IMG/VR virus record: IMGVR_UViG_3300033141_003975
Coordinates: 1-61,348 of that record
DNA length: 61,348 nt
Reading direction: 5' to 3' (one strand)
From: a virus
Lineage: Duplodnaviria > Caudoviricetes
The translations under genes were made by a program, and so were the position numbers. Below the pieces are notes generated by a model. It had not been told where the DNA came from, ran no database searches, and saw only the letters and a list, made by a program, of their open reading frames with translations. Shown here one piece after another: positions 38,295 through 59,201 of the stretch; the first letter of the stretch is position 1, and every line of letters begins with the position of its first letter.

Positions 38295-38300
38295 GGTCAG

Positions 38301-40789: not shown

Positions 40790-41176
40790 ATGAGCGAATT
40801 ACGGAACTGGATTGAGGAACGGAATAAGGACTTCGACGAAGCCTTATTTCAAAAAGTGGAGAAGGCTATCGCTGGTCACAGCGTAAGCTTGCGCAAGTGG
40901 CTAAAAACCGAAGGCGTTGAGTTTTCGGATGAAGTCGAAGCCACATTAAAAGCTATGGGATATCTGGCAAAGATATCCTATTTGGAAATTTGCGCTATCC
41001 GTGACGAAAGCGCAAATTGGGATAGCTATTATTGCGACATAATAGCTGAATATCTGAACGTGGGAGAGACTTACGAACCTACAGTGATATACGATGTAGA
41101 GGAGTGTGAGTACTTAATTTCGAGCGTAGGCGACTACGTTGAAAACTACCAAATTGAGAAGGGAGAATTATTATGA
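40790..41176 (+). CDS. hypothetical protein
   Basis: AAGGGAG RBS; YLNVGETYEPTVIYD. Confidence 0.7.
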   Translation: MSELRNWIEERNKDFDEALFQKVEKAIAGHSVSLRKWLKTEGVEFSDEVEATLKAMGYLAKISYLEICAIRDESANWDSYYCDIIAEYLNVGETYEPTVIYDVEECEYLISSVGDYVENYQIEKGELL

Positions 41177-41631: not shown

Positions 41632-41657
41632 TCGCTCGCTCTAAGTCAATCCGCTTG

Positions 41658-41689
41658 CCCCAAAGGTTCTCTCTTTGGGGTTTTCTTTT
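41658..41689 (+). terminator. intrinsic terminator
   Basis: CCCCAAAG-N7-CTTTGGGG followed by TTTTCTTTT. Confidence 0.8.
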
Positions 41690-42855: not shown

Positions 42856-42973
42856 GTTGTGGCCCTCCAATCAATTTGTAACATTTTGTTACAAAACCCG
42901 TTACACTTCGCCACATTTTGTTACATTACCAATCTGGTCAAGATTTATCTTCAAAAAAATTCGTCAATAGCTA

Positions 42974-43002
42974 TTGACAAGGGTGTTGCCGTGAGTTAAA
43001 CT
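42974..43002 (+). promoter_or_regulatory. sigma70-type promoter with a palindrome over the -35 box
   Basis: TTGACA-17-TAAACT; GTCAATAGCTATTGAC at 42963-42978. Confidence 0.7.
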
Positions 43003-43063
43003 CCGAATGTAGGTGAAGGGAGAACCCAAACAAATTACCCTCCCACCAAAGGAGACAGCTATT

Positions 43064-43636
43064 ATGGAGCACATAATCACCCGCGACAGTAAGTTCAAAT
43101 GGGGTCAGTGGCTGGAGTTTGAGAGTGAGCACTCCAGGTACTCCCTCGGGTATCACCAAATCCTCTGGAGGGGCGAGCTCCTTCATTGTGGCTGGAACTG
43201 GGGAGATCTGAGCGAGGAAGAGACGAAGAAGGCAATCCTCGAAGCCCGAGAGGCTTACGGGGATATCGTGAAGCCCTACACGCGCGAGTGTATGGAGACT
43301 GACAAATACGCACCCGTGAAGCTCCCCGACCATCGCGGCGAGGAGAATTATATTGACTGCTACTTCCTTCCTGTAGGAGCAGTCAAAGAGATTGTAATTT
43401 CCAATTATGCTCGCTGCCACCTTGACCGGTCCAGCGCGACAGCTCTCTGGGCCTCCCACCCTCCTTACATCCTGGATATAAGTGATGATTGTTTTCGTGG
43501 TCATGGTCGTATGACTGCGAGGGTGCAGATTCTGGAAGAGCAAGCATTGTACAACTATGTACAGGATTCAGCTGGGTGTATTGAGAGGCGGGCGCTGTAT
43601 TTGGCAATCCCTTCCTGGGTGAATCATAATGTATAG
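43064..43636 (+). CDS. hypothetical protein, paralog family A
   Basis: AAGGAG RBS before ATG 43064; LWASHPPYIL..QALYNYV shared with 46670 and 50719. Confidence 0.75.
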   Translation: MEHIITRDSKFKWGQWLEFESEHSRYSLGYHQILWRGELLHCGWNWGDLSEEETKKAILEAREAYGDIVKPYTRECMETDKYAPVKLPDHRGEENYIDCYFLPVGAVKEIVISNYARCHLDRSSATALWASHPPYILDISDDCFRGHGRMTARVQILEEQALYNYVQDSAGCIERRALYLAIPSWVNHNV

Positions 43637-44498: not shown

Positions 44499-45392
44499 AT
44501 GATGATGAAAATCCAAGTAGAGACTTATGTTGAACCTAAGAGTAGCGAGTATCGGTACTGGGTGTGTGCCACTGATATGTGGCACAAAATCACACGGGAT
44601 GGGGAAGTCGTGGTGGACCAAACTGTCGAGACCGGAAATAGATTTCTCGACGTGACAAAACGCAAGTTCCCGCCTCGCATCTACGAATGCGAGTGTGAGG
44701 AACAGGATCTGCTCAAAGTTCTTTTCAAAGATTTAATCGGCAGTAAAGAAGATCTTGATGACCCGTATGAGCGAATCATCGGGATCAGGATGTATTCCGA
44801 GTTAAGGAAACTCCTTAACCTGGAACATCAGGAGGTAGTCAAGATCTTCGGATACTACGACTCGTGGTGCCTGAACGATTGGGTTCCTCCACATTCCCCA
44901 CCCGGGATTTATATTCATTCCAGTTGTCCTTCCCGGGTCCGGTATTTCGATCTTGTCCATGCGATCAAAGGATTACGGTACGAGATCGTACCCGACCCTT
45001 TGTACGACGGGGAAGTCACAATCGCCCCGTTACTTGCCCCATGGTTCCAATATAAGAAATGCAGGTGGGTATTACTAACCCAGAACGAGATCGCGAAGCT
45101 TGTGGCCCGCAACTACGGGCCGGACTATCCGACGAAAAGAATCCTCTGGAAACTCAGGGCGATCATGACGCCGGAGTCAGTCTACTCGGAGATTCTGCGA
45201 GGCCCTGGGGCTATTAAAGAAGAGTTACGTCGGATCAATTCCGACATCGAACTCTATGAAGCTGATAATGGTCAGCTCTATCTAGAGGAAGGGCCCTATT
45301 TCAAAGACCTGAGTCCGAATGCCATCGACAATCTGCGCCGGTTGTCGCCTGGCGCAGAAAATAAAGAGATCAGGGAAGCCTTGCTTTCTTGA
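44499..45392 (+). CDS. hypothetical protein, paralog family C
   Basis: PRIYECE..DPYERIIGIRMYSELRK. Confidence 0.8.
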   Translation: MMMKIQVETYVEPKSSEYRYWVCATDMWHKITRDGEVVVDQTVETGNRFLDVTKRKFPPRIYECECEEQDLLKVLFKDLIGSKEDLDDPYERIIGIRMYSELRKLLNLEHQEVVKIFGYYDSWCLNDWVPPHSPPGIYIHSSCPSRVRYFDLVHAIKGLRYEIVPDPLYDGEVTIAPLLAPWFQYKKCRWVLLTQNEIAKLVARNYGPDYPTKRILWKLRAIMTPESVYSEILRGPGAIKEELRRINSDIELYEADNGQLYLEEGPYFKDLSPNAIDNLRRLSPGAENKEIREALLS

Positions 45393-45403
45393 GAATAATC
45401 CAA

Positions 45404-45429
45404 CGGCGAGCCGGAGCCGAACAATCCGG
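45404..45429 (+). promoter_or_regulatory. H-type pseudoknot-like leader, copy 1
   Basis: CGGC/GCCG and CCGGA/TCCGG, then AGGAG. Confidence 0.55.
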
Positions 45430-45440
45430 TAGGAGACATT

Positions 45441-45986
45441 ATGAGTTACTATCGAGCCACAGCAAGCGAAGACGGAGTAATCTTCGAGTACGCCCTTCCA
45501 GATGGAAGAGGCTGGAGAAAGAGTGATGTCCTCGCTGATGTCACTCTTGAAAAACTCGAAAATTTCATCGAGGGCCGCCTCCCAAACAGAGGACTTCCAG
45601 AACCACTAATCCGCCAATCCGCAGACTGGTGGATTCGCATCGAAGGTACAAGATGCCGAATCTACCTCCAGCAAGAGGATGCTCGCGGCGGTCGGGCATA
45701 CTACGCCAGACCGTCAGAGATCTCATCTGAGGTCGTCAAAGATATTCTTCGGGCTATTGCAAACGATATTGATCTCGACTTCCAAGATTCGGAAGTCAAG
45801 GAAGACGATGTCGCCTGTTTCAGTATAGGGGATAAAGCGGAATTGATCGCGGACCTCATCCGCGAGGAGACCCGTGGACTTTACGAGGTTTCAACTGACA
45901 GAGGCCTCGTAAAGATCACTCCAGCGGAAAATCATGAAGAGTTCTTCGCTGGATTTATCGCCGGAGTGCGACGAATGCTCCAATAG
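45441..45986 (+). CDS. hypothetical protein, paralog family D
   Basis: G.GW..; GDKAELIADLIR..EVSTDRGLV..FFAGFIAG shared with 51192. Confidence 0.78.
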   Translation: MSYYRATASEDGVIFEYALPDGRGWRKSDVLADVTLEKLENFIEGRLPNRGLPEPLIRQSADWWIRIEGTRCRIYLQQEDARGGRAYYARPSEISSEVVKDILRAIANDIDLDFQDSEVKEDDVACFSIGDKAELIADLIREETRGLYEVSTDRGLVKITPAENHEEFFAGFIAGVRRMLQ

Positions 45987-46034
45987 GTTCCCATCACTTC
46001 CCTGAGCCGCATGATGCTCAGGCAGTGAATCCAA

Positions 46035-46058
46035 AGGCAGACCGAAGCCTGAATTCGG
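46035..46058 (+). promoter_or_regulatory. H-type pseudoknot-like leader, copy 2
   Basis: AGGC/GCCT and CCGAA/TTCGG, then AAGGA. Confidence 0.55.
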
Positions 46059-46070
46059 CAAGGAAATAAA

Positions 46071-46673
46071 ATGGACATGGTAGCCCATTTCAGAAAGAAA
46101 CTGGAGCAGGAAGTCCTGCTCCGTGTATACTCAAGCCCCGTGTCGCCAAAGGGTGATATCATTTGGGGTACTGCTTCATATCCCAAATACTTCAACGATG
46201 ATATTGCTATTGTTTCCAAAGGCGTGTGTAAGGGCTATGTGACACCCATAGCACGCAGCGGCCATCCTGCTGATGGCGACTTTATCTTGCATGGGGAGAT
46301 TTTTGGACCAGAGGAAAATGTCTCATTCCTCGATGCTTACTTGGCCATTGAGAGACAGGTCCTCTGCAAGGAAAACATCGAGGCGGCTCGCAACGACTTC
46401 CTTACACGGAATTACTACAAAGAGGATTTGGATGATTTGGTCTATAACCTTGTAGATGAGAGTGACCTCGACATTGAGATCGTCTGGGGGAATGAAAAAA
46501 CAACACAGCTTCAATCCCTCTTGCGCCATGCAGCACAATATGGGTTCTACTGGGGGCCCCAGACCACTGCGCAAGTGCGGAAGGATGGGAAGTTGTTTTT
46601 TGGCGGCTTCAAGACAAGAAGCCCCGGGCAGTTATTCAGCCTCATTGTGATGGCTATCCTGGAGGGAGAGTGA
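46071..46673 (+). CDS. hypothetical protein (C-terminus resembles 48642, family E)
   Basis: DLDIEIVW...LIVMAIL. Confidence 0.72.
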   Translation: MDMVAHFRKKLEQEVLLRVYSSPVSPKGDIIWGTASYPKYFNDDIAIVSKGVCKGYVTPIARSGHPADGDFILHGEIFGPEENVSFLDAYLAIERQVLCKENIEAARNDFLTRNYYKEDLDDLVYNLVDESDLDIEIVWGNEKTTQLQSLLRHAAQYGFYWGPQTTAQVRKDGKLFFGGFKTRSPGQLFSLIVMAILEGE

Positions 46674-47467
46674 TGGCTACCACAACCCGCATCAAAAAAG
46701 ATGCTTCTTGGCTTTTCTTTGAAAGCAACGGGGCCAAACACCCGCTCGGGTACTATCAATTATTGTGCCAAAGTGGATTATTCTACACCCCCAAATCCCT
46801 CAGCTCCCTTCCCGAGGAGGAGCTTGTTCAGGTCCTGGACAGCATCGACTTCTCTCGCCTCACCCCACCCGACGTGAATGAAGCCTTGGCTACCGGCGAC
46901 GCCTTGATAGGGAAGGCGGCGTTTCATCTTGACTTAACAAAGAGCGAAAATGCCGTCTACACCATCTGCCATCCTGGGGACGTCGTCGAGATCCCCCTGG
47001 CCCAACACCCGGGCATGACGACGACCCTCTGGGCAGGCTGCCCCCCATTCATTCTGAAAGTGAAGAATGTGAGTTCTCCTAGCTGCTGGAATGACACAGC
47101 AATAGTCAGGATGTCTCCCAAACAGGCCCTCTATGCTTATGTTCGCGAGGCATCTGGCATTTGCAAACGATATCAAATGCTCCTCACTCTGCCTCAAAGC
47201 GAAGAATGCACACTCGTGTGTGGGTTTGAGAATGGGCGCTCGTGGGCATTCGCGCAGGGTTGGAGTGAAGGCTACACCGACGGTGGGGGCCGTCTTCACT
47301 ACGGGGAGATGCCTTCGCAGAGTGCACAATGCTTCCCTTGTGCTTACACGCAAGCAAACAGACAGATCCTTGACGAGCTATGGGCAATAGAGCCATTCGA
47401 CATCAGCCCTTCCCCATGCCGTCAAGAAGGAGTGCAGTTCGTGCACTTCTATAATCGAATACCTTGA
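46670..47467 (+). CDS. hypothetical protein, paralog family A
   Basis: WLFFES..LGYYQL; LWAGCPPFIL; QALYAYV. Confidence 0.78.
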   Translation: MMATTTRIKKDASWLFFESNGAKHPLGYYQLLCQSGLFYTPKSLSSLPEEELVQVLDSIDFSRLTPPDVNEALATGDALIGKAAFHLDLTKSENAVYTICHPGDVVEIPLAQHPGMTTTLWAGCPPFILKVKNVSSPSCWNDTAIVRMSPKQALYAYVREASGICKRYQMLLTLPQSEECTLVCGFENGRSWAFAQGWSEGYTDGGGRLHYGEMPSQSAQCFPCAYTQANRQILDELWAIEPFDISPSPCRQEGVQFVHFYNRIP

Positions 47468-47479
47468 AAGGAGTTAGCC

Positions 47480-47752
47480 ATGAATTACGCACTGAGACAC
47501 AACAGTCATTGGCAAGGCGAGGGCCTCGGCCCCGTCATCGACGTGTTTGCGACAAGGCGGGAAGCTGAAGCCCTCGAAGACTTCATGTCAACGTGTTCTT
47601 TCTGCTTCCCTGGTCGGTCATCCGGTTACTCAGCAGGTGTTTGCTACAAAGTCAAACCCACCCGTCGTCCAGTTACAGCCGAGGTCGACCCCACGGATGA
47701 AATCTCACTACAAGACTACATGGACGCTCTTTGCGAGCGCGAATATGCTTAG
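47480..47752 (+). CDS. hypothetical protein
   Basis: AAGGAG RBS. Confidence 0.7.
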   Translation: MNYALRHNSHWQGEGLGPVIDVFATRREAEALEDFMSTCSFCFPGRSSGYSAGVCYKVKPTRRPVTAEVDPTDEISLQDYMDALCEREYA

Positions 47753-47761
47753 GAGGAAATC

Positions 47762-48199
47762 ATGTACGACGTATTCAAGGAAGGTAACGAGTTTGTGGCT
47801 TATCCTCGCCCCGATGATGAACCGAGATTGACAGCAAGATGGCGCGATCCTGATTTGTGGATGTTGGATCGCAGCAAATTCCCGAGGAATCCCGAGGAAT
47901 TGGAAGCCATGCTTGTTGCGGAAGACATCTTCTCTTCTGCAATGGACCCCAGTGACATTCCGAAGATCACCGATTCCTGGGATGACAATCCCGACGGGTA
48001 TGTTTCGATCCCGTTTGAGTGCAATGGCGGCTTCATTCCTGTTGCAGTGCCCTACTGGTACTGCCTCTCACCTTTGGACGCAGCCCAAGAAGTAGGATAT
48101 TACGACTCGACCACAAGTAGGGAGTACTGTGGCGAGTTTGAGGCTTTCGATGAAGAGGAAGCAATTGAAGCGGCAAAGAAATTGGAGGGAGTGTCATGA
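47762..48199 (+). CDS. hypothetical protein, paralog family B
   Basis: AGGAGG RBS; YDVFK..PRPDDEPRL. Confidence 0.72.
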   Translation: MYDVFKEGNEFVAYPRPDDEPRLTARWRDPDLWMLDRSKFPRNPEELEAMLVAEDIFSSAMDPSDIPKITDSWDDNPDGYVSIPFECNGGFIPVAVPYWYCLSPLDAAQEVGYYDSTTSREYCGEFEAFDEEEAIEAAKKLEGVS

Positions 48200-48627
48200 G
48201 AGAGTTCAAATTGGTTGGTGATTGTCTCGCAGAATGGGGCGGAAGCGGGCGGAATACCGGAGAGGCTACTATTATTGCAGGCCCATCTGGAGAGAGGAAG
48301 CCTGCGCGCTGGATCAATCGCATGGGACACTTGTCCAATGGAGAACATGCTTTGATCCCTGTTGAACCTGGTGACCTCGTAATTCATACAAATCACCATT
48401 GCAGGGACCACATCCTGTCAGTGTCAGTCATAGAGAAGATGACGCTCAGAGGTACTGCTGAGGCTCTTGAGGTATTCACTGGGCGCGCGATGCTCGACGA
48501 CGACAGACTGGTGGTGGAGCCCCATCCCGACTCCTGCCAACTCCCTGACACCTGGTATGAGGCCTGTATCGCTGTACTGAGAAAGGCTGAGACATACCAC
48601 TGTCGGGAAGCAGTGTATGTTGCATAG
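48196..48627 (+). CDS. hypothetical protein
   Basis: ATGA-coupled; EWGGSG.NTGEATII, YHCRE. Confidence 0.72.
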   Translation: MREFKLVGDCLAEWGGSGRNTGEATIIAGPSGERKPARWINRMGHLSNGEHALIPVEPGDLVIHTNHHCRDHILSVSVIEKMTLRGTAEALEVFTGRAMLDDDRLVVEPHPDSCQLPDTWYEACIAVLRKAETYHCREAVYVA

Positions 48628-48641
48628 AAAAGGAGGAAGCG

Positions 48642-48932
48642 ATGCTTGACACAACAAACAATAATTCCTCTTTGGATTTGGTTGACATAGTCCGAGATGT
48701 TGATATCGAAATCCATTGGGATACAGGAGACCCCTCTCCACTCCCCGACATTATCTCCTACATCGAGCTCTACAAGGAGATGAGTTGGGATAACATCCAG
48801 TGGGCGGAAGTATGGGTTAAGGGCACTCGCCCATTGGATTTGCGAGCTGAAAACCCGCAAGAGATGCTCATGCTCATCATCGTGAGTATGCTTGCCACAC
48901 AAGGAGGCCCATCGTGTTCACGTAATTCATGA
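48642..48932 (+). CDS. hypothetical protein, family E
   Basis: AGGAGG RBS; DVDIEIHW...LIIVSML. Confidence 0.68.
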   Translation: MLDTTNNNSSLDLVDIVRDVDIEIHWDTGDPSPLPDIISYIELYKEMSWDNIQWAEVWVKGTRPLDLRAENPQEMLMLIIVSMLATQGGPSCSRNS

Positions 48933-49249
48933 CAGTTTCTTTCCTGGCAGGATTTGGTCTTGGCGTTCTGCTCATTGTTGGCCTTACACGTATACGCTTG
49001 CCTGGGCGTAATCCCGAACTGGAGCGTTACTTGGGATTGAGGTACAGAATTGTTATTGAACCTTTCTCTGAGGAAGAGGGTGGTGGGTACGAGGCATTCA
49101 TCCCGACATTGGGCAAGTCAACGTGTGTCGCAGTCGGAGATACAGAGGAAGAGGCCCTCGACAATCTCCTGAGCGTGAAAAGAGATGTTATGGAGTCTTG
49201 GTACAAGGAGGGGCTTCCAATTCCATTACCGAAAGGAGAAAGGGAATGA
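48929..49249 (+). CDS. HicB-like antitoxin domain with N-terminal TM helix
   Basis: YRIVIEP..EEGGGY.AFIP.L...AVGDTEEEAL......W..EG.PIP.P. Confidence 0.8.
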   Translation: MTVSFLAGFGLGVLLIVGLTRIRLPGRNPELERYLGLRYRIVIEPFSEEEGGGYEAFIPTLGKSTCVAVGDTEEEALDNLLSVKRDVMESWYKEGLPIPLPKGERE

Positions 49250-49638
49250 AAACCAAACGACTCACACTACTCGGCGATTCACTCCTATATGAAGCCTTTG
49301 CCAGTGAATATACAGCAATTGGTGAAGGTTGGCACGTTATGACAAAAGTTCGTTTAGGCAAACGCATCAGAGCGAAGAAGCTTATACAAATCTTGGAAGA
49401 ATCTATTGTCGCGACTAAAGATGAAGAGATTGTGGATGTGGACCGCTACCGAATGCTTATCTTGAAGGACCACGGGGGCTGCCATATTGATCTCCAATGC
49501 GCAGGCAGTCTTTTTTACGAATCCTACGATCCTTGCAAGAAACTGAAGAGATCAATAGCTCTTGCGTTCATAGAGGCCCTTGCGCGCAAAGGTCTACTTG
49601 AATTCCATAAGGAGAATGAGAATGAAATCTGTATGTAG
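49246..49638 (+). CDS. hypothetical protein, paralog family D (N-terminal part)
   Basis: RLTLLGDSLLYE...GEGW resembles RITKLGDRLLLE...GEGW of 51192. Confidence 0.7.
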   Translation: MKTKRLTLLGDSLLYEAFASEYTAIGEGWHVMTKVRLGKRIRAKKLIQILEESIVATKDEEIVDVDRYRMLILKDHGGCHIDLQCAGSLFYESYDPCKKLKRSIALAFIEALARKGLLEFHKENENEICM

Positions 49639-50722
49639 ACGAAACGATCTGTTACAAACAGTCCGACGACTGCGCTCAATCAGCAGCTGGGTTACAGTCT
49701 CGTCCAACCTCGATTCCGAGTCCATTTCTTTGACAGCGCAAGACAATAGCCGTGTGCTGACCGCTAAACTCTCTACCAACGGTGTCAGCAAATGCCTTCT
49801 GCTTCTGGACTTAGAGGTTCTGCAAAAGAAACTTGCAGCCTTGACCGTACCCGAGGTCGCCCTATGTTGCGAGTTAGGCACCCTGATTCTGAGAGCGAGC
49901 AAGTTCCAATTTCAACTAAACACTTGCCAGACTCTCAACCCCCCGAGTACACTATTCACCACCCCCTCCCACACAAGCGACTTCCCCTTACACAAATTCC
50001 GCCTCCTCCTTGCTTCCATACTTCCTTATACCTCAACCGAGAAGGGGCAGTATGAACTTGATGCACTTGCGTATAGACGCGGTGTCTGGTACTCAACAGA
50101 CGGAAGGCGTGTTGGGGTATACCACTTCCCATTATCCCACGTCCCCGACGAATTCACTCTACCCGACTCTTCCTACCTCGACATAATCCGACGCAGTCTA
50201 CCCCGAGGTAAGAAAGGGACAGGGACTATTTCTTTCGACAAGGAGTATAGTTGTGAGATAGCCTGGGGGAAGTGGAGGTTCCAGACCCGTTTACTGGCAG
50301 GACCCTTCCCGCCATACCAAAACTTAATTCCCGACAACCAAAATAGTATTGTCGTGAATAAGGATGAGATCTGCGCAGGACTGCTGGATGCACAAAACCG
50401 CGTGGACCCCAGCACGGAGTATATAGGCTTGGACATAGACAGCGGATCAGAGATTGCCTTTGTAGTTCCTGAAGGCGACATAATCTCAAAGACACAAGCG
50501 CTGCAACTGTATGAGCCGCGCGAGAGGGTTATGTGGCTGAACAGGGCCCTACTCCTCCAAGGCATCAAACCCGTAACCTCCGAGACGGTCGTGCTCAAAA
50601 TAGGGCCTTGCTTGAAACCCTGTTACGGAGCCCCCGACTATGGTCCTATTATGATCCACGGCGAGGACCCCTGTTACCAATACGTCCTCATGCCCAAAAT
50701 CCCGCCTGGAGAACTATCATGA
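49622..50722 (+). CDS. dnaN: DNA polymerase III beta sliding-clamp-like protein (divergent)
   Basis: About 366 aa; STDGRRV, TRLLAGPFPPYQNLIP, C-terminal YVLMP. Confidence 0.8.
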   Translation: MKSVCRRNDLLQTVRRLRSISSWVTVSSNLDSESISLTAQDNSRVLTAKLSTNGVSKCLLLLDLEVLQKKLAALTVPEVALCCELGTLILRASKFQFQLNTCQTLNPPSTLFTTPSHTSDFPLHKFRLLLASILPYTSTEKGQYELDALAYRRGVWYSTDGRRVGVYHFPLSHVPDEFTLPDSSYLDIIRRSLPRGKKGTGTISFDKEYSCEIAWGKWRFQTRLLAGPFPPYQNLIPDNQNSIVVNKDEICAGLLDAQNRVDPSTEYIGLDIDSGSEIAFVVPEGDIISKTQALQLYEPRERVMWLNRALLLQGIKPVTSETVVLKIGPCLKPCYGAPDYGPIMIHGEDPCYQYVLMPKIPPGELS

Positions 50723-51135
50723 GATTTGAACAAGACAAGGCATCGTATTGGGCATTCCTCCGTGAGATATCATGCTACTCCGATATCGCTTGCGAGGTGT
50801 TGAAAAACCACTGGTCGAATTCCTTTATTGGCATTGGTTTTTACCCGTGGGCATCTCCGTTCAGACACCTCCCTGCGCGAGTGCCTGACACTGAGGACGA
50901 ATGGGGTGAGTATTTCGTCAAGTTCCCTGGAGACATCGTGCCCATCCCCCTCGACGCTTCCTGGGCAGGAGCGCCTCCGAAAGTAACGGAGGTGGATGAG
51001 GAGCACGGGTTTGCAAAGGTCGAGATGCTCCCGAGCCAAGCGCTCAATTGCCACTACCCCCCTTTACTTCATGAGATATTGTGGTCAACAGACTGCTTGT
51101 ATCTAGCCAGGAGGATTTTCATCACGCTTCCTTGA
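50719..51135 (+). CDS. hypothetical protein, paralog family A (short)
   Basis: WAGAPP..AKVEMLPSQAL..RIFITLP. Confidence 0.68.
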   Translation: MRFEQDKASYWAFLREISCYSDIACEVLKNHWSNSFIGIGFYPWASPFRHLPARVPDTEDEWGEYFVKFPGDIVPIPLDASWAGAPPKVTEVDEEHGFAKVEMLPSQALNCHYPPLLHEILWSTDCLYLARRIFITLP

Positions 51136-51154
51136 GGCTCGATATCAGAAATTA

Positions 51155-51179
51155 AAGGCCCGCTGAAGCCTTGATTCAG
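51155..51179 (+). promoter_or_regulatory. H-type pseudoknot-like leader, copy 3
   Basis: AAGGC/GCCTT and CTGAA/TTCAG, then AGGAG. Confidence 0.55.
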
Positions 51180-51191
51180 TAGGAGACAACC

Positions 51192-51737
51192 ATGCACAGA
51201 ATCACGAAGCTCGGAGATCGTTTGTTATTGGAGAAATACCGAAACTCATCCCTTGGAGAGGGTTGGTTCATCGTCAAGGAACTAACCCCTGCCACCCCAG
51301 TCACAGAGTTCCTGGCCCCCGCCGTGAACCCTTTGACACACAGTGCCTCGGTCCAGCTCGAAGGTTACAAACTCATCTTCACGTCGCACAAATCAGTACA
51401 CCTGCTTCGACCAGGCACTGACACTCGCGGCTCCTCCCGCTGGGAACCCACAGAGACAATCCCCTTTGACAAACTCCTCGGTCTACTTCGCTGGACTGAC
51501 GAGAATGGGGTTATTGACTTTGCCGAAGTCGATATTTGTGATGAATCCATTCACACAGATGTTGGCAAACACGCAGAGGATGTCGCAAAGATGATCCGCA
51601 AGGAATTTAATTCTTTGATTGAGGTAACAGCAGACAGTGGTATTGTGCAAATATCCCAGACCTTTGGCAAGCGGGACTACTTCCTTGGGTTTATCTGTGG
51701 TGCCGCTGTAGCATTGGAACAGAAAGGAGAAGTGTGA
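51192..51737 (+). CDS. hypothetical protein, paralog family D
   Basis: GKHAEDVAKMIR..EVTADSGIV..YFLGFICG. Confidence 0.78.
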   Translation: MHRITKLGDRLLLEKYRNSSLGEGWFIVKELTPATPVTEFLAPAVNPLTHSASVQLEGYKLIFTSHKSVHLLRPGTDTRGSSRWEPTETIPFDKLLGLLRWTDENGVIDFAEVDICDESIHTDVGKHAEDVAKMIRKEFNSLIEVTADSGIVQISQTFGKRDYFLGFICGAAVALEQKGEV

Positions 51738-52105
51738 TGTCCGTGTTCGTGAATTGCTCAAACCATATCATTGACACGTGGTCAGCCGAGCAAAGGGAAG
51801 CAGCTCATGCTTTGGGTTGTGAGCATTTGGTGGACCGCCCGTTCCCGAATGTAGATCCCGAGGCTGATGAGGAAACAATAGGTGAATTAGCCTGGGGGCT
51901 CGCCCAATCCCTCAGATACATCCTCGACAGCGACCCGCCTGGTGTAGTCATGATCCAAGGCGAATCAACCCTTGTGTTTCGCACGGTATCCATACTCAAG
52001 AGTTTGGGTATTGTGTGTGTGGCAGCAACAACAAAGCGCGAAGTCGAAGAGCGTGATGGGAAGAAAATCTCAATCTTTCGTTTTGTTCAACTTCGCCAAT
52101 ACTGA
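51734..52105 (+). CDS. Csx20/Csx15/Crn1-like CARF-related protein (putative cyclic oligoadenylate ring nuclease)
   Basis: FVNCSNH...WS.EQ, PFPNVDP, IQGE, AATTKR, C-terminal FRFVQLRQY. Confidence 0.7.
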   Translation: MMSVFVNCSNHIIDTWSAEQREAAHALGCEHLVDRPFPNVDPEADEETIGELAWGLAQSLRYILDSDPPGVVMIQGESTLVFRTVSILKSLGIVCVAATTKREVEERDGKKISIFRFVQLRQY

Positions 52106-52116
52106 GGAGATGGAAT

Positions 52117-52473
52117 ATGATAAATGTGCCAGAGGATCTTGAAGACTACATCGAGGATGCGCATGAAGCTCTGTTGCAGTACTTCAATTACGACGTCCTC
52201 GCTTTCATGCTTGACGATCTGACCCGACTCGCAGATTACTGTCTCGGCCAGTCTCAAGCGCGGGCTTGGGAAGACGAAGCCGCGCGTGCTATTGCGAAAG
52301 ACTTACTCCGTAGACTTACAAGCGATGGGCGCTTTACTTACGAAACGGACAGCGTATTGGCAATCGACCTCGCTTGTTTCTTTCGCGTAACACTCCAGGC
52401 CGTCTCCGCCGTAATCGCAACAATGGCAATCTCGGGCGAAACAATACAGGTGGTGTCCAAACGAGATATATAG
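52117..52473 (+). CDS. hypothetical protein
   Basis: GAGGAG RBS; 118 aa. Confidence 0.68.
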   Translation: MINVPEDLEDYIEDAHEALLQYFNYDVLAFMLDDLTRLADYCLGQSQARAWEDEAARAIAKDLLRRLTSDGRFTYETDSVLAIDLACFFRVTLQAVSAVIATMAISGETIQVVSKRDI

Positions 52474-52488
52474 AAAGGATGAGTCACT

Positions 52489-53163
52489 ATGCCTCAAGTA
52501 TTATACGTAATGGGTAAGTCGGAAGGAGAGCTCCAGTATAAGGAGAAGCTTCCAATACGGAAACGGAGTCAGGAATGGACCCTTACCACCCACCCTGACA
52601 CGGTTTTTGTCGGAGACAGCGGGCGCGTGATATTCCGCCGCGATCTCCCGTTCTGGTCCACCCCTAATGGAGAAGCTCTACTAAAACGAGCCCCTCACCC
52701 TTGGATGGAGGAGGAGATGTTGGAGGCTTGGGATAAACTCGAACTCGCCCTCTGCACCGCCTCCCCCGTCTCCGGTTACTACACCCTCCCGTATGGCAAA
52801 GACACTGCCATAGCCCCAGTCTCTCCCAACCGCCCTACCCCCTTCTACCCTCTAGGCAAAGTGGAGCTTTGTGTCTGGATCACGCGAATGCAGCCTACGC
52901 ATATAGGGGTGTGGAACGGGAAGTTGGGTGCCTTGCTGTGGACGGATGAGGACGGGCTCGTAGGTGCGACGCTCAGCTTCAAACCCAACCCCAGCTTCTA
53001 TGCATGGCTAGTGCCGGATGAGTGCACTTGGTGGGATATTGTTCTTGAGAAAGGGAAGTTCAGGGCGGTACCTGCCATTGGACGGGATGATTCCTTGGGC
53101 TGTGTCCATGCTGATTCAGCCAGAGCAGCTGTGGAACAATTCCTTGAGGATGAGTCAGAGTAG
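52489..53163 (+). CDS. hypothetical protein
   Basis: AAGGA RBS; last plus-strand gene, converges on the methylase. Confidence 0.7.
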   Translation: MPQVLYVMGKSEGELQYKEKLPIRKRSQEWTLTTHPDTVFVGDSGRVIFRRDLPFWSTPNGEALLKRAPHPWMEEEMLEAWDKLELALCTASPVSGYYTLPYGKDTAIAPVSPNRPTPFYPLGKVELCVWITRMQPTHIGVWNGKLGALLWTDEDGLVGATLSFKPNPSFYAWLVPDECTWWDIVLEKGKFRAVPAIGRDDSLGCVHADSARAAVEQFLEDESE

Positions 53164-54003
53164 TGAGTCTTGTGTGAGGAAGGGCACCTTAATCCAGTTG
53201 GCCATGAGTTGCCCTTCCCGCATCCCAATTGGCGTATGAACAAACTCTCGGGCCCTCTCCACATAATACACTTGCTCATCATACCCAATCCCCTTCCTCC
53301 CCAAATACTCAGCCACTTTCACGGTCGTCCCTATCCCGCAGAACGGGTCCAGCACATACTCCCCCTTCTCTGAATAGAGCTGTATCACACGATAAGGTAT
53401 TTCCTCGGGGAATGGGCACGGATGCGGGAGTGCGTGAGGCGGCACGGGCGGTATATGCCACACATCATTGGCCACTTCCTTCAAAAACAAATCATCCACT
53501 TCCAATTCCTCCTCCATCTCCCACACCCTATTCCCGGGCTTCCGATACACCTGCACCCTCTCAGTCATTATATTCGGATAATACTTCCCAGGATAAGGCT
53601 TTTGAATAAACACTCCTGCCCGCTTCACACCCCCCGTCACCTTGTGCCACACAATCTCCTCATGGAAATCCCATCCCACTTCCTTGACCATCTTCACCAG
53701 GAACTCCTGTGGGAAAGGTATCCTCATCCCCCCAACCAGTATTGTCCCGATCACTACGGCACAAAACCCGCCAGGTACAGTCACACGCTGCACTTCCCCA
53801 AAACACTCCACAGTAAGTGTATGCAAGAACTCATAATACTCATCCATATTTCCTGCGCGGGTACGGTACCAGGTATTCGGATTCTCGATATGCTTCGCGT
53901 AGTCAATCGAGTTCCAATACGGGGGACTGGTGACAGTCAACGCCACCTGGTTGTCCTTGAGAGGCAGGTTGCGACAGTCGCATTGTTCAAGTATTGGTGT
54001 CAT
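53155..54003 (-). CDS. second N4-C/N6-A beta-class DNA methyltransferase
   Basis: TSPPY, HPCPFP, DPFCGIGTT. Confidence 0.92.
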   Translation of the reverse strand: MTPILEQCDCRNLPLKDNQVALTVTSPPYWNSIDYAKHIENPNTWYRTRAGNMDEYYEFLHTLTVECFGEVQRVTVPGGFCAVVIGTILVGGMRIPFPQEFLVKMVKEVGWDFHEEIVWHKVTGGVKRAGVFIQKPYPGKYYPNIMTERVQVYRKPGNRVWEMEEELEVDDLFLKEVANDVWHIPPVPPHALPHPCPFPEEIPYRVIQLYSEKGEYVLDPFCGIGTTVKVAEYLGRKGIGYDEQVYYVERAREFVHTPIGMREGQLMANWIKVPFLTQDSLL

Positions 54004-54023
54004 CTTTCATCTCCATAATACAC

Positions 54024-54096
54024 TTCCGGGCTGGGGCAAACACTCTAAAACCGTCAGCCTGGTGGTGGGCAAGCTTGGCGGGACCCCAGCCCAGAA
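54024..54096 (-). ncRNA. structured intergenic element upstream of the methylase
   Basis: 13-bp closing stem TTCTGGGCTGGGG/CCCCAGCCCGGAA with an inner imperfect stem. Confidence 0.35.
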
Positions 54097-54099
54097 TCT

Positions 54100-54513
54100 T
54101 CAATTCGTATAAGCGGATCGAAACTCAGTGGGCAAGACAACCGGTTCCACCCACCGTGTGGCACTCTCGATGATTTCATAACTCAGTGACGGTAACGCAC
54201 GCAACACCTCTGCCAGATCCTCCACAGACCCTCCCTGCGTCGTCACGTTTATCTCATACAGATTCCCTTTTATGGTTCCGTAGTGGATGCGCTGAGACTG
54301 ATACAACCCAGTCCCGTGCACGTGGCTTTGTACTGGAACTGCATCCACAACAGCTGACACTTTGACAGACGTTGCAGCTCCAGGTTCAGCTTGTAACTGC
54401 TCCCACGAAAACCTCACAACATTCTGCTCAATACAATCAGCTTCCCATTTCGAGACTTGCGAGCCTGCACACCCGAGCAACGCCACAAGCAAAACTCCTG
54501 CCAACACTTTCAT
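54100..54513 (-). CDS. lipoprotein
   Basis: MKVLAGVLLVALLG-C lipobox. Confidence 0.75.
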   Translation of the reverse strand: MKVLAGVLLVALLGCAGSQVSKWEADCIEQNVVRFSWEQLQAEPGAATSVKVSAVVDAVPVQSHVHGTGLYQSQRIHYGTIKGNLYEINVTTQGGSVEDLAEVLRALPSLSYEIIESATRWVEPVVLPTEFRSAYTN

Positions 54514-55436
54514 TCTCCACCTCCTGTGAACAGTTTCCCTTGCTCATATCGCGACACCCTCATCCACCCCCCACGCACGCCTTCGGGGCTGAAGGTATCC
54601 GTTCGCGCGGAGATCCGTACCAGAAGCTCCGCCCCCTCGCCTATTGTGACGCCAGGATTCGACCCTGGTGCCTTTCTCAACACCCCCACAGCCCCATCCC
54701 GCAACACGAAGCTTGCCTCTGCCTCGCGTGCGAAGTTCCAAATCATCGACCCCCCTGACAGATTCCCCGTCAACAAGCTCCCACTTCCTTGCTCCACAAC
54801 AACTTCCCCTCCAACAGCCTCTATATTCACCAGAGCTTTCGCCTCAGGTTCACTCCGCAACATCACTACACTATTCCTCCCTTTCACACACAATCCCCCA
54901 TTTGATACCAGGGCCAAAACACGCGCTCCTTCACCTGCAAACACTTCCGCTTTCCCTCCTCCGTCCAGTTCAAGTGTGACGCTCTGCTCGGCAGGCAAAC
55001 GCACTTGTGCGAAACTCCCTTCCCCATACACTTGTACAAGCGGTGGCTTTGCCTCAGCTTCCTGCACTTCCACTTCCACCCCCCCTTTCCTGCACACATA
55101 CAACTCCCCCTGCGGGTACAACACGACGTCCTTCATCTTCGTGTTCGGGTAGGTCGCGATATACGGCCTGTCGACGCAGACATACGTGCCGTCTTGCAAC
55201 AGCCACCATTTCTGCCACTCTGCCAAAGCCTTCATCAGTGCTTTCTTCTTCTTTGCCGTCAGATCAATCGAGCAGGACAGAAACCACTGCTGCGGATTCG
55301 CCGCGAAATGCTTCCCCGTGTCCGGCGGTGTAGCCACTACACGCACTTCATCCTCTACCACAGGATCTAAAGTATCCCGCCACCACATAGCCTCGTCATC
55401 AGGCAGCAACGCCAGTACCACTTCCTCTTGAAACAT
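54510..55436 (-). CDS. hypothetical protein, Gly/Val-rich beta-helix-like C-terminus
   Basis: 308-aa ORF with AAGGA RBS in the operon. Confidence 0.68.
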   Translation of the reverse strand: MFQEEVVLALLPDDEAMWWRDTLDPVVEDEVRVVATPPDTGKHFAANPQQWFLSCSIDLTAKKKKALMKALAEWQKWWLLQDGTYVCVDRPYIATYPNTKMKDVVLYPQGELYVCRKGGVEVEVQEAEAKPPLVQVYGEGSFAQVRLPAEQSVTLELDGGGKAEVFAGEGARVLALVSNGGLCVKGRNSVVMLRSEPEAKALVNIEAVGGEVVVEQGSGSLLTGNLSGGSMIWNFAREAEASFVLRDGAVGVLRKAPGSNPGVTIGEGAELLVRISARTDTFSPEGVRGGWMRVSRYEQGKLFTGGGE

Positions 55437-55974
55437 AATCCTTTTCCTTTCTCATTAACTTTTGTAAATACGTGCGTGAAACATACAGGTCGTAATTCTC
55501 CGCCAACATCTCAACACACATCATCCACGAACACCCGCACTTCCGCCACTTCCTCACACAGTCAAGACACTCCCTCGGCACTTCCTGCACCATACTTCTA
55601 CTCCTCCTCCGCCACCGATCATGGCAGGATCGCGAACAAAACATCCTCCACGAATTACTCTCAAACAGCCTCCCACACTGTTTGCATTTGTGCCTATACT
55701 TCCTCCGCCTCTTTGCTAAATAACACTCTCTGGAACAAAACAGCTTCTTACTCTTCGGTCCTACAATCATTGTCTTCCCACAATACCTACACTTCCTTCG
55801 CACTTTTGGAGGAAAGCGGGAGCATCCGCATGACTTCTTATTCCCATTGAGTATTGCAGAGTAGGATATGGTACAGGTCTTCCCACAGTCACAAATTGCA
55901 CTCAAATACTGCTTACTTGCTATCCCCGTAATCACCAACTTCCCCACTCTCATTCCCTTATATTTCGTTCCCAT
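55399..55974 (-). CDS. Cys-rich zinc-finger protein
   Basis: CDCG...KSCGC segment typical of HNH/AP2-associated N-termini; two CxxC...FCSxxC repeats. Confidence 0.65.
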   Translation of the reverse strand: MGTKYKGMRVGKLVITGIASKQYLSAICDCGKTCTISYSAILNGNKKSCGCSRFPPKVRRKCRYCGKTMIVGPKSKKLFCSRECYLAKRRRKYRHKCKQCGRLFESNSWRMFCSRSCHDRWRRRSRSMVQEVPRECLDCVRKWRKCGCSWMMCVEMLAENYDLYVSRTYLQKLMRKEKDYVSRGSGTGVAA

Positions 55975-56560
55975 CTTCCACTCCTTGCACACTCATCTTC
56001 GACACCAAATCCCATTTCTTCAGTGTGCCGAAGTCCAGCGTTCCCAACCACCCCCCGATACACCGCCTGCGCTCGAAAACCCCGTCGCCGAATTCTTTAT
56101 AGGGTGTCACGATATTGGCGCGCAACTCCTCCGGCCATTCCTTCGGCCATTCCCTTGCTCCCTGAAACAGCGGGGTTCCTTCGATGCAGATGAGATTTTG
56201 GTGAGAGACGAGATAGCCCAGCCTTCGCCACGTCCGGCAGAAGCAGCCTTTGGCCCCAACCCAGTGTCCAACATACGTGGACTGGATGAGCAAATTACTT
56301 CCTTGGAACACGAACGAGACTGGTGAACAATTCTCGGACTTCTCCACTTCTCGACACAAAGCCACAATCTCCGACTCCGGTATTTCCTCTCGGACATATA
56401 TCGCCAGAAATCCCTTGCGGTGATTGAGATACGCTAACGGATACAGCGCCTCTCCATCCTCCCCTGTCTTGACATACAACTCCTTGCCGGAGAAGGATCG
56501 TGGGAATATATGGAAGCGGACATGCGGGAATTTCGTACTGGCCAGCTTATACATACTCAC
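55958..56560 (-). CDS. hypothetical protein
   Basis: 200-aa ORF coupled to its neighbours. Confidence 0.62.
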   Translation of the reverse strand: MSMYKLASTKFPHVRFHIFPRSFSGKELYVKTGEDGEALYPLAYLNHRKGFLAIYVREEIPESEIVALCREVEKSENCSPVSFVFQGSNLLIQSTYVGHWVGAKGCFCRTWRRLGYLVSHQNLICIEGTPLFQGAREWPKEWPEELRANIVTPYKEFGDGVFERRRCIGGWLGTLDFGTLKKWDLVSKMSVQGVEDGNEI

Positions 56561-56811
56561 TCCTTCGGCAAATCAAGCTTCTGTTTCTTTTTCACGATGT
56601 GTAGAGGTTTCTCAGCCTTCACCCCACCCCATATCTGCGTCAGGACGCCAATAATGGCCATAGCTGCGGCTATCAGGGACGAGATATCCTGTGTGAGCGT
56701 GGCAATCTGTTCCTCACTCAAATCCACCCCCCACACTCCTACAATCATAGCCACTACGGTAAGTATGGCTCCAATCCCTCGACGACTCTGCAAGAAATGC
56801 TTCGATTCCAT
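56557..56811 (-). CDS. putative holin (2 TM)
   Basis: AAGGAGG RBS; two hydrophobic helices, basic C-terminus. Confidence 0.6.
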   Translation of the reverse strand: MESKHFLQSRRGIGAILTVVAMIVGVWGVDLSEEQIATLTQDISSLIAAAMAIIGVLTQIWGGVKAEKPLHIVKKKQKLDLPKE

Positions 56812-56824
56812 TTTACTTCCTCCT

Positions 56825-57370
56825 TTAGAATCTCGGATTACCTCCAATGTTCGTCGGACTGAGCAAAATCACTAACTCAATACTCCCCCAACTCATCTTC
56901 CCTGTGTCAGTGGTATATAGCATCAATGTGAAGGATTCCATTGTGCTTAGATCCACCTTGTACACCCCCCAGTTCACAATACCGCCACTCCCTGGATCAC
57001 TAACTCCTTCTGTCATCGATGTCACATTGAGCTGCACCATATCAGGTGTGGCTGCTCCTTGTAGTGCTGATCCCAGCGCGCAGAAACTCGCATTCGATAT
57101 TGACCCTTCCGCCATAACGAACCTGCCATTAGACATTCCAGAGGCGAGTTGTATTACAGCACTGTCTGCACTCCAAGTACGTATTGGCTTCATTGCCAAT
57201 CTGTAATTCGTACTCGCAGCTTCCACTGTGCTGCTTGCAATACTTGCTCTGAAATAATCTGGCCACCCAGACATCAACCCGCGCCTTTGCGCCAAATCAT
57301 ACTCAATCTCCCCAAATACATTTCCTGTCAGGACCAGGACCAGAATTGTTGGTAGTAACACTTTCTTCAT
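56825..57370 (-). CDS. signal-peptide beta-rich protein
   Basis: MKKVLLPTILVLVLTGNVFG-E; GGAGG RBS. Confidence 0.7.
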   Translation of the reverse strand: MKKVLLPTILVLVLTGNVFGEIEYDLAQRRGLMSGWPDYFRASIASSTVEAASTNYRLAMKPIRTWSADSAVIQLASGMSNGRFVMAEGSISNASFCALGSALQGAATPDMVQLNVTSMTEGVSDPGSGGIVNWGVYKVDLSTMESFTLMLYTTDTGKMSWGSIELVILLSPTNIGGNPRF

Positions 57371-57723
57371 TTCTTACCTCCGAAAACCTCTCTTGCGGTT
57401 TTTTTGTTATGGCAACTCGCACACAACGGTTGCCAATTACTCCTTCGCCAGAACAACTTCAAATCCCCCTTGTGAGGTATAATGTGGTCCACAACCTCGG
57501 ACGGCTTCCCACATATAGCACACACGGGATGTCTTTTCAAAAACACCTTTCTCGCCTCTCTCCACTTGTGCCCATACCCTCGCTTCGGTGCCGAGGGTCT
57601 CCGCTCATCAATACACTCCCTCTCTTGCTGACGCTTGATCCTCTCGTGCTCAGGGCAGCGTCTACCCGAGGTTATCACTCTACCACACCCTGGTACGCAA
57701 CAGAACTTTTTCACAGTCGGCAT
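57367..57723 (-). CDS. HNH endonuclease (HK97 gp74-like terminase cofactor)
   Basis: RGYG.KW...FL..HPVC..C...VDHIIPH.G....FW...NWQPLC..CHN.KT. Confidence 0.92.
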   Translation of the reverse strand: MPTVKKFCCVPGCGRVITSGRRCPEHERIKRQQERECIDERRPSAPKRGYGHKWREARKVFLKRHPVCAICGKPSEVVDHIIPHKGDLKLFWRRSNWQPLCASCHNKKTAREVFGGKK

Positions 57724-59201
57724 CTTTCACACTCCTCACTCTGCACGAAATACAACTCTTTCCGTGCGCGTGTCACAGCCACATATACCAAATTCCTCTC
57801 TTGCTGTTGCGCCCAGCTCGGGAGCTTCGGTGTCCAGAATGGGGGCAATAGCTGGTTCGCGTCCAACAAATACACCCTATCCCACTCAAGCCCCTTCGCT
57901 CGGTGCACAGTTGATAACACCACCGCCCCCTGTTTCTGCGTGAATAACTGTGCAAGAAACTCAAGCAGAGACTCTTTGGTGCTTATCTTTGTATTATAGT
58001 CTAATATAGCATCGAGGCAAGTGATTTTGTCTCGCAAGGACTCAATGGCACTGATTTTCCCCGACCGTTGCCATGCCAAAGACTTCTCCAAGAAGTACTT
58101 ATGCAGGTTCTTACGCCAAACCTCTAACTCACTCCCTGCGATTTTCTTTGTGAGGGAAGCAAGAGATGTGCCAATATCCCTCCCGACCATGTTGCAGGGG
58201 ATACCGGCAGCCAAGAATGCAAGGGCCAGGCGCACCAATGGGGCATTCGTGCGGCACAGGATCGCGGAATTCCCATCCAACACGGGCACCCATCCCCCTT
58301 CCACTTCCACCACTTCCCCTTCAGGCGCACCCTCGGCATATTCTATCTCAGGCACTTCCTCTTGCGCTCTGAGGACAATGGATTTGGCACAGCGGTAGCA
58401 TATAGACAGTGGCAGTAACTCCGCTTTGGTGGAGGTTTGTATTGTGTCAAAGGCATCAACCCCAGCCCCGCGAAAGCCATAGATAGCTTGTCTTGGATCA
58501 CCAATAGCCACCATCCTGCCTCGCAACAATTTCAGCAGTAGCGCAAGCTGCACACTATTCACATCTTGTGCTTCATCCACAAACACCCAGTCGTATTGAG
58601 GAGGGTTGAGTTTGAGCTTGAGAGGGAGGTAAAGCATGTCATCAAAGTCAATAACTCCGCTTTCGGCGTATACCAGCGACTTCTCGAATACCTGTTTGGC
58701 CAACCCAATACTCCTCTCACACACATCCAGGTCGAAACTGTCGGCAACAGCAGCGAAGTTTTCTTCATCACACCGACTCACAATCCCGACACCATAATTT
58801 TTGGCAAGACTGACCAATTTCAGGACGTCAGTTGTGTCCCTGTTCCCCGCAATTTCCATCAATATCCCACGATTCTTACTTCCGCTGCCGTCAACCTCAT
58901 AGCTATTATTCCTGGCCCTGATTAAGGTGCGGAAACCAACGGAGTGAAGCGTCTTACACTCTACTTCCCTTCCTATCCGTCTCTGCAACTCGTTTGCGAT
59001 AGACTTGTTGAAAGCCACGAACAACGCCGACCCTCCCGACACAAACTCCGTTGCCATACAGGCAGTCGTCGTCTTCCCGCTTCCGGCTACGGCATTCACA
59101 CACGCATTCCCTTCCCCTTTGCTTATCCAGTCGAATATCCTCCTCTGGTACACACTCGGCTTCAACTTTGGCTTACGTACACAATCAGACAAAACTCCCA
59201 T
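57711..59201 (-). CDS. UvrD/Rep-family SF1 helicase
   Basis: AVAGSGKTT, DEAQD, GDPRQAIYGFRGA, HRAKGLEW, YVAVTRA. Confidence 0.94.
   Translation of the reverse strand: MGVLSDCVRKPKLKPSVYQRRIFDWISKGEGNACVNAVAGSGKTTTACMATEFVSGGSALFVAFNKSIANELQRRIGREVECKTLHSVGFRTLIRARNNSYEVDGSGSKNRGILMEIAGNRDTTDVLKLVSLAKNYGVGIVSRCDEENFAAVADSFDLDVCERSIGLAKQVFEKSLVYAESGVIDFDDMLYLPLKLKLNPPQYDWVFVDEAQDVNSVQLALLLKLLRGRMVAIGDPRQAIYGFRGAGVDAFDTIQTSTKAELLPLSICYRCAKSIVLRAQEEVPEIEYAEGAPEGEVVEVEGGWVPVLDGNSAILCRTNAPLVRLALAFLAAGIPCNMVGRDIGTSLASLTKKIAGSELEVWRKNLHKYFLEKSLAWQRSGKISAIESLRDKITCLDAILDYNTKISTKESLLEFLAQLFTQKQGAVVLSTVHRAKGLEWDRVYLLDANQLLPPFWTPKLPSWAQQQERNLVYVAVTRARKELYFVQSEECERCRL

Follow-up and report, generated by a model that had tools for sequence, protein, structure and literature searches.

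A Csx20-family protein of an uncultivated tailed phage is a candidate anti-type III CRISPR ring nuclease

The viral genome analysed here (IMG/VR record IMGVR_UViG_3300033141_003975, positions 1 to 61348, referred to in its full length of 61,348 nt as the window) carries a gene at 51737-52105 that encodes a small protein of the Csx20 family. In our reading, to which we assign a probability of about 0.6 and which draws on analogy with cellular Csx20, a dimer of this protein would act as an anti-type III CRISPR ring nuclease that destroys cyclic tetra-adenylate (cA4). The CARF-like protein would assemble as a symmetric homodimer, bind cA4 across the two-fold axis and cleave it to linear products, as the characterised cellular Csx20 does. 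In bacteria, Csx20 is located beside or fused to cA4-activated effectors and turns type III signalling off. Made alone by the phage during infection, it would destroy the cA4 that stems from the activated Cas10 of the host; Csx1/Can-type effectors would stay silent or their activation would be shortened, and type III CRISPR would be blunted. The binding and cleavage of cA4, the expression during infection and a host with cA4-signalling type III are parts of this model that we only infer. A sequence-only reading of the same DNA had proposed a possible anti-type III CRISPR function in hedged form, and in that form it is supported by the Csx20 match, the Rossmann-like fold, the predicted homodimer, the lack of cas genes and the agreement with the literature.

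The family assignment is carried by profile comparisons. The match to the PADLOC Csx20 profile PDLC01397 is full-length (E = 3.4e-28) and aligns residues 5-123 with profile positions 2-114 of 114; two further PADLOC Csx20 profiles matched the phage protein at 1.1e-7 and 4e-5. The C-terminal Csx20 module of the PADLOC CARF-HEPN-Csx20 fusion profile was matched with an E-value of 1.5e-21, and a weaker match was obtained with the PADLOC Csx15/20 profile (E = 2.3e-11). In NCBIfam, CAS_Csx20 (NF040559) was the sole meaningful match (E = 9.5e-9). A Pfam scan up to an E-value of 10 returned no family, and hence no DUF1874, and PHROGs returned none either. The database copy of the protein (P0001), which was seen on three contigs, and its four nearest relatives carry the precomputed Pfam label PF27247. 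Using a search profile built from the phage protein and four close relatives (5 sequences), we detected 2,693 representatives at E ≤ 0.001 in a protein library clustered at 50%. The family comprises stand-alone proteins of approximately 120 amino acids, tandem doubles and C-terminal fusions of 450-600 amino acids.

Conservation was evaluated in an alignment of the phage protein with 82 stand-alone members (83 rows). All nine invariant columns are kept (N6, N9, H10, Q19, P37, R101, F114, F116 and R120), as are 24 of the 26 columns conserved at 80% or more, a set that presumably forms the cyclic oligoadenylate (cOA) site; overall, the phage protein is approximately 45% identical to its relatives. 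Judged by its sequence, the protein is a genuine member of the Csx20 family. The earlier description as a stand-alone Csx20/CARF-like ring-nuclease candidate is therefore borne out by the full-length profile match, the conserved residues and the missing cas genes, and all motifs quoted for it are found in the translation (NCSNH, followed after four residues by WSAEQ, as well as PFPNVDP, QGE, ATTKR and FRFVQLRQY).

The same profile matches could be read differently, in that the dimer might bind cA4 tightly with slow or no turnover, so that the signal would be sequestered and not destroyed. The related Csx15 was described as an effective cA4 sponge with very slow nuclease activity (PMC13148439), the use of sponges against cyclic nucleotides is well established among phages (PMC12409355), the Csx15/20 profile also matches the phage protein with 2.3e-11, and two conserved positions differ from the family. 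We nevertheless regard a sponge as unlikely: the match to the Csx20 profile is far stronger than that to Csx15/20 (3.4e-28 versus 2.3e-11), the nine invariant residues including N9, H10 and R101 are all kept, the Csx20 that was tested is an active enzyme (PMC12409355), and Csx15 was not seen in phage genomes (PMC13148439).

A ring nuclease that destroys cA4 would also be in keeping with the predicted structure. The AlphaFold2 (AF2) model (predicted local distance difference test score, pLDDT, 96.1; predicted template modelling score, pTM, 0.86) shows a Rossmann-like arrangement of five strands and three helices, assigned by DSSP to residues 3-7, 30-34, 70-73, 93-106 and 109-121 (strands) and 17-25, 45-62 and 77-89 (helices). 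The elements follow the order strand-helix-strand-helix-strand-helix and end in a long beta hairpin. In CARF domains, the ligand pocket is formed by loops after the core strands; in the model of the phage protein, the conserved S-N-H comes after strand 1 and Q-G-E after strand 3. A profile search of PDB sequences gave chance-level matches only (best E = 0.057). In the structural comparison proposed with the sequence-only reading, Foldseek returned nothing from the PDB at E ≤ 0.001, and an exhaustive aligner listed SAVED and CARF domains. Sixteen of the 50 entries listed by this aligner are SAVED or CARF sensors of cyclic oligonucleotides, and the top solved matches among those listed are SAVED/CARF domains with modest Z-scores, including the Crn1 ring nuclease 7YGH. 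These matches are consistent with a CARF-like fold of the modelled protein, short of proof. Three small unnamed viral proteins were found in BFVD at E ≤ 0.001, with template modelling scores of 0.5-0.6.

Furthermore, a symmetric homodimer was predicted with a score of 0.84, compared to 0.00 for the best of three controls. Among solved structures, 20 of 30 pairs of one chain attain this mark, compared to 1 of 23 single-chain proteins; these counts apply here only roughly, since the prediction used a custom alignment and two adenosine monophosphate molecules modelled alongside two protein copies. Contacts agreed to 100% between the dimer runs, the pLDDT of the partner was at least 90, and the predicted symmetric interface comprises residues 39-48, 74-85, 96-100 and 117-122. 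The protein library also contains two tandem double-Csx20 proteins, P0006 (293 amino acids) and P0007 (304 amino acids). The first half of P0007 lacks the N-H of the S-N-H motif, and in the second half of P0006 an A replaces the N. Judged by its sequence, each resembles a covalent pseudo-dimer in which one site has degenerated, and such natural tandem proteins independently suggest a dimeric unit.

The genomic surroundings of cellular relatives point to type III signalling. We collected 37 genome loci encoding such relatives and searched the fetched flanks for 12 type III/CARF-effector markers; one of these markers, a 405-amino-acid protein from locus L028, has no PADLOC family, and L028 and L031 also match other markers. 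At least one marker was present in the flank of 28 loci, with two of the 28 being weak (approximately 50 bits). Csm1-type Cas10 occurred in 18 of the genomes to which the 37 loci belong, 15 times above the cut-off, and lay inside the fetched flank in 9 of the 37 loci. According to PADLOC, csx20 is immediately preceded by a CARF-PD-(D/E)xK effector in one locus (L007), where a type III-D Cas7 fusion is present as well, CARF-HEPN effectors adjoin csx20 in two others (L012 and L013), and the flank of a fourth (L009) contains a fusion of reverse transcriptase and Cas1 (RT-Cas1). In L022, L024, L033 and L034, Csx20 is the C-terminal domain of CARF-HEPN (Csx1/Csm6-like) proteins with open frames of 583-718 amino acids, which would be self-limiting effectors in analogy to the published Csx1-Crn2 fusion. 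With markers in 28 of 37 cases, the loci agree with the published picture of Csx20 (PMC12409355), in which no extrinsic ring nuclease is more common (78 loci) and Csx20 is found only with cA4 effectors and tied especially to Csx1. Cleavage of cA4 was demonstrated there for one cellular Csx20; the enzyme fully degraded cA4 in vitro, and cyclic tri-adenylate (cA3) was degraded at an enzyme concentration of 10 uM (PMC12409355).

A tblastn search against plasmids gave five matches. Four are full-length and fall on genes annotated as CRISPR-associated or csx2; the fifth is partial (43% of the query) and falls on a gene annotated csx20. Four near-identical csx20 genes on contigs of Oscillospiraceae metagenome-assembled genomes (MAGs; L036, L038, L040 and L042) had no type III/CARF marker in the fetched flanks, which extend to 10 kb at most. 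Downstream of each come series of very small open reading frames (ORFs), and the copy in L038 adjoins an ORF of 2,428 amino acids; these orphan genes may be located on a mobile element or prophage. The closest csx20 by local identity (56% over 50 residues) lies at 1599-1972 of a Bacteroidales MAG contig (L043). Its frame stops after 80 residues and the match is in two pieces, which points to a frameshift in the gene or to an error in sequencing; the gene differs little from the copy in L008.

The degradation of cA3 raises the question of whether the main target might be another cyclic-oligonucleotide pathway, such as the cA3-based cyclic oligonucleotide-based antiphage signalling system (CBASS) or NucC-type signalling. 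With 10 uM enzyme, Csx20 broke cA3 down completely (PMC12409355), viral cA3 nucleases could counter both CBASS and type III, as put forward for Crn4b (PMC12830947), and the top fold matches listed for the phage protein include SAVED domains of CBASS effectors. On the other hand, the cA3 activity of Csx20 was minor at lower enzyme concentration, its cellular co-occurrence is described for cA4 effectors only (both PMC12409355), and the cellular relatives collected here adjoin Csx1/Csm6-type and CARF-PD-(D/E)xK effectors. We consider it improbable that such a pathway is the main target.

In the phage, csx20 stands alone. The record represents a complete viral genome of 61,348 bp, rated 100% complete and flanked by direct terminal repeats of 114 nt, and a six-frame family search detected exactly one Csx20 match in it (51746-52102, E = 1.1e-28). 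Csm1-type Cas10, Cmr2, Cas1 and Csx1/Csm6 gave 0 matches in the whole record. No CRISPR array was found over the genome by Tandem Repeats Finder, which reported one trivial array only, or by a direct-repeat scan, which reported only the terminal repeat and scattered pairs. The earlier statement that the genome has neither CRISPR repeats nor a cas operon holds as far as these searches reach. With no Cas10, Cas1, Csx1/Csm6 or array, the copy is an orphan viral one, which has no bearing on the membership of the protein in its family.

The gene and its immediate surroundings comprise the following features.

49580-50722, plus strand: DNA polymerase sliding clamp (phrog_947, E = 1.3e-12), in the same rightward block
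51192-51737, plus strand: upstream gene, 181 amino acids, no assigned function (no Pfam or PHROG family, no usable Atlas match)
51724-51729, plus strand: Shine-Dalgarno (SD)-like AAGGAG, 7 nt before the ATG at 51737, read from the sequence
51737-52105, plus strand: csx20 homolog coding sequence, 122 amino acids from the ATG at 51737 (alternative GTG at 51734, 123 amino acids), stop TGA at 52103-52105
52117-52473, plus strand: downstream gene, 118 amino acids, no assigned function; GGAG precedes its ATG (no Pfam or PHROG family, no usable Atlas match)
52489-53163, plus strand: last gene of the rightward block, 224 amino acids (no family found in Pfam or PHROGs)
53155-54003, minus strand: convergent N6/N4 DNA methyltransferase (Pfam N6_N4_Mtase, E = 1e-33; phrog_67)

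The sequence-only reading had placed the frame at 51734-52105 with 123 amino acids. This frame is present and its GTG start is listed, but the ATG at 51737 is the likelier start because of the AAGGAG 7 nt upstream and because the database copy P0001 is also 122 amino acids long. The TGA of the upstream gene (51735-51737) shares one base with this ATG, an arrangement suggestive of translational coupling between the two genes, and the next gene begins 11 nt past the csx20 stop. The gene is thus embedded in a tightly packed co-directional array that ends at 53163 against the convergent methyltransferase.

This arrangement bears on the trivial explanation of a spurious ORF or of host CRISPR DNA joined in by misassembly. 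That the record was assembled from a metagenome is all that speaks for it. The overlapping or near-abutting co-directional neighbours and the SD motif of the gene itself argue against it, as do the absence of any cas gene among those sought anywhere in the record, the 114-nt terminal repeats that close a record rated complete, and the occurrence of the protein on three contigs. A chance ORF is contradicted by the PADLOC Csx20 match (3.4e-28) and by the 2,693 library representatives. We regard an artefact of either kind as extremely unlikely.

The tailed phage carries the genes for the large terminase, portal, head protease, major capsid, tape measure and tail proteins in a leftward arm (3-37229), and a helicase and a family-A DNA polymerase at 57.7-61.3 kb. 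The rightward block, which is non-structural, extends from approximately 43.0 to 53.2 kb and contains, besides the sliding clamp, other genes without recognisable family; the clamp marks it as a replication/accessory module. At approximately 42875-42895, two perfectly matching 9-bp arms of an inverted repeat enclose a 3-nt spacer, and a partial second copy follows approximately 30 nt downstream. With TTGACA-17-TAAACT, the region has its best promoter-like site at 42974-43002, which is followed by an SD motif and an ATG at approximately 43065. Read from the sequence, the repeat and promoter at 42875-43068 look like an operator/promoter heading the rightward block that ends with csx20. Over the genome, 29 promoter-like sites were counted compared to 20.6 ± 5.1 expected, which gives no timing information; the placement among early genes in the sequence-only reading thus gains no support here. 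The genes at 49243-49638 and 51192-51737 have a common N-terminal motif (BLASTP E = 9e-8, 22% identity over 125 residues) and may form a small phage-specific paralog family. The methyltransferase at 53155-54003 is possibly a second counter-defence gene beside csx20.

Orphan csx20 genes recur in other viruses. Two pattern-limited scans of IMG/VR revealed 26 other contigs with a csx20 relative (the five from the first scan are among the 26), so that at least 27 IMG/VR contigs, this phage included, carry an orphan csx20. By shared flanking genes, the 26 contigs form approximately 18 groups, and no type III/CARF marker was found within 3 kb of csx20 in any of them. For three contigs, inspection of the flanks showed them to be viral, as they encode helicase, terminase and portal; the viral status of the remaining ones rests on IMG/VR. 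Within the 3-kb flanks, no gene is shared with this phage except a methyltransferase homolog in two related contigs (L044/L045), in which a 442-amino-acid homolog of the phage methyltransferase is located at 4942-6270, approximately 1.6 kb from csx20. The pairing of csx20 with a methyltransferase gene is a recurrent one. A tblastn search of Csx20 against 50,697 collected phage records gave no match at E ≤ 0.001; csx20 has been reported from 4 of 28,114 Millard phage genomes (PMC12409355), and these four published copies may be too distant for this search.

In a tree of 41 rows, from which L006 and L043 were dropped as partial, the five viral rows need three changes. The csx20 of the phage forms a long branch (1.37) in a polytomy outside a supported Bacillota clade (96/94), so that neither a donor nor a direction of transfer can be named. 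Based on these sequences, several acquisitions of csx20 by viruses are plausible. The idea of a captured host ring nuclease, put forward in the sequence-only reading together with a phylogeny as its check, is not supported by this tree.

The setting of the gene could also be taken to suggest a domain that is carried along as a passenger or has been repurposed for a task within the phage itself and apart from host immunity, for example as a nucleotide-binding regulator of replication, or a recent acquisition without current function. The gene lies in a replication/accessory block beside the sliding clamp and genes without known relatives, no known acr or aca neighbour was found, and its branch in the tree polytomy is long. 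Yet the frame is intact and 24 of 26 conserved positions are kept at approximately 45% identity, which argues for a maintained family function, and orphan copies recur in the 26 other viral contigs of approximately 18 groups. We judge a phage-internal or absent function to be rather improbable.

Several observations weigh against an anti-type III CRISPR ring nuclease. The phage protein missed the equivalog cut-off of NF040559 (35.7 bits versus 70), with only residues 49-123 aligned. This model is narrow: at E ≤ 1e-5 it picks up 77 of the 83 stand-alone homologs, yet the best E-value among them is only 6.6e-17; with the 70-bit cut-off missed and the model narrow, we filed the protein in the broad Csx20 family and not in the NF040559 equivalog. 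Two conserved positions differ, S12 being replaced by I and F119 by L. Among the neighbours of csx20, neither an anti-CRISPR-associated (Aca)-like regulator of the ribbon-helix-helix (RHH) or helix-turn-helix (HTH) type nor a known anti-CRISPR (acr) gene was recognised with Pfam, PHROGs and Atlas. The best promoter-like site of the block lies approximately 9 kb upstream of the gene, which does not head an early operon. Nine of the 37 cellular relatives are likewise without nearby CRISPR markers, so that absent cas genes alone are no proof of counter-defence. Finally, neither the large terminase (TerL), at most 40% identical to that of any collected phage, nor the capsid, whose best match reaches 46% over 72% of the query, points to a host in which the phage would meet cA4-signalling type III.

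The same comparisons characterise the phage lineage. No host is indicated by TerL (≤40%), by the capsid, which matches one Clostridium phage record at 46% over 72% of the query, or by the DNA polymerase (<35%). No tRNAs were found in the genome, and a megablast comparison of 45000-58000 with the phage collection found no DNA match. By sequence comparison, the phage represents a lineage without cultured relatives. SD-like motifs precede 46 of the 71 longest-ORF starts in the genome compared to a background of 13.7%. Frequent SD motifs are a weak hint against hosts that use such motifs little. Elsewhere in the genome, the region 38000-42000 has a low G+C content (0.42-0.43 compared to approximately 0.50 elsewhere), with an amidoligase-like gene at 38575-39786 (Pfam Amidoligase_2, E = 2.7e-7; phrog_16683) and two strong terminator-like hairpins, and may be an acquired accessory segment. 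On the minus strand at 54100-54513, a 137-amino-acid ORF has an N-terminus resembling a signal peptide with lipobox, as read from the translation, and may encode a phage lipoprotein.

Taken further, orphan Csx20 would make up a widespread class of anti-CRISPR ring nucleases of viruses that has the CARF fold and stands apart from both AcrIII-1/Crn2 and Crn4b. Uncultivated tailed phages unrelated to one another would have gained it on several occasions, and the copy described here may act on cA4 and cA3 and blunt type III CRISPR as well as cA3-based CBASS; we would give this broader proposal an even chance. Viral ring nucleases as anti-CRISPRs are an accepted class (PMC13148439, PMC12830947), and three of more than 80 anti-CRISPR families subvert type III (PMC11662646). 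The idea of viral Csx20 as an anti-CRISPR is already in print and this copy is an added member, so that the gain lies in confirmation and breadth and not in surprise. No assay of a phage Csx20 as an anti-CRISPR was found in the literature searched, a search that covered sources other than subscription journals and supplements. Among the means by which cells shut cA4 signalling down, Csx20 is the most common, and few anti-type III proteins are known. A well-conserved copy in a complete genome of a lineage without cultured relative is a clean candidate for a CARF-type viral anti-CRISPR ring nuclease, and the phage protein could be compared kinetically with its slow cellular cousins.

Compared to known systems, the phage protein is most similar to cellular Csx20 (Hoikkala et al. 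2025, PMC12409355), with which it shares a full-length profile match, a size of approximately 120 amino acids and the invariant residues, a likeness measured against family profiles. Its AF2 fold resembles the published AlphaFold3 model of Csx20, a five-strand sheet flanked by helices (PMC12409355), and its predicted homodimer is a further common trait. It differs in that it is virus-encoded without Cas10, Cas1 or CARF effector, falls below the NCBIfam cut-off and sits on a long branch. The csx20 genes published from phages and other mobile genetic elements are similar to the one described here in being orphans in a mobile element that are read as counter-defence (PMC12409355, PMC13551039). 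Among these, csx20 homologs occur in operons under the RHH regulator Aca14 and were proposed to be co-opted counter-defence genes (PMC13551039); in contrast to these csx20-aca14 operons, this phage has no recognised RHH/HTH Aca-like neighbour.

The proposed task, a small dimeric viral enzyme destroying cA4, is that of AcrIII-1/Crn2 (PMC12409355, PMC12830947). This family is unrelated, however, with a non-CARF dimeric domain compared to the CARF-like Csx20 (PMC12830947), and PMC12409355 bears out the remark in the sequence-only reading on the different fold of AcrIII-1 (DUF1874). Crn1 (Sso2081, PDB 7YGH) is a CARF ring nuclease, which shows no sequence match to the phage Csx20 and is longer (178 versus 122 amino acids); Crn1 is mainly crenarchaeal (PMC12409355). 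Crn4b offers a parallel as a cellular ring nuclease with phage orthologs (11 of 28,137), which are presumed anti-CRISPRs, whereas Crn4 differs from Csx20 by a novel non-CARF fold and a broad cOA specificity (PMC12830947).

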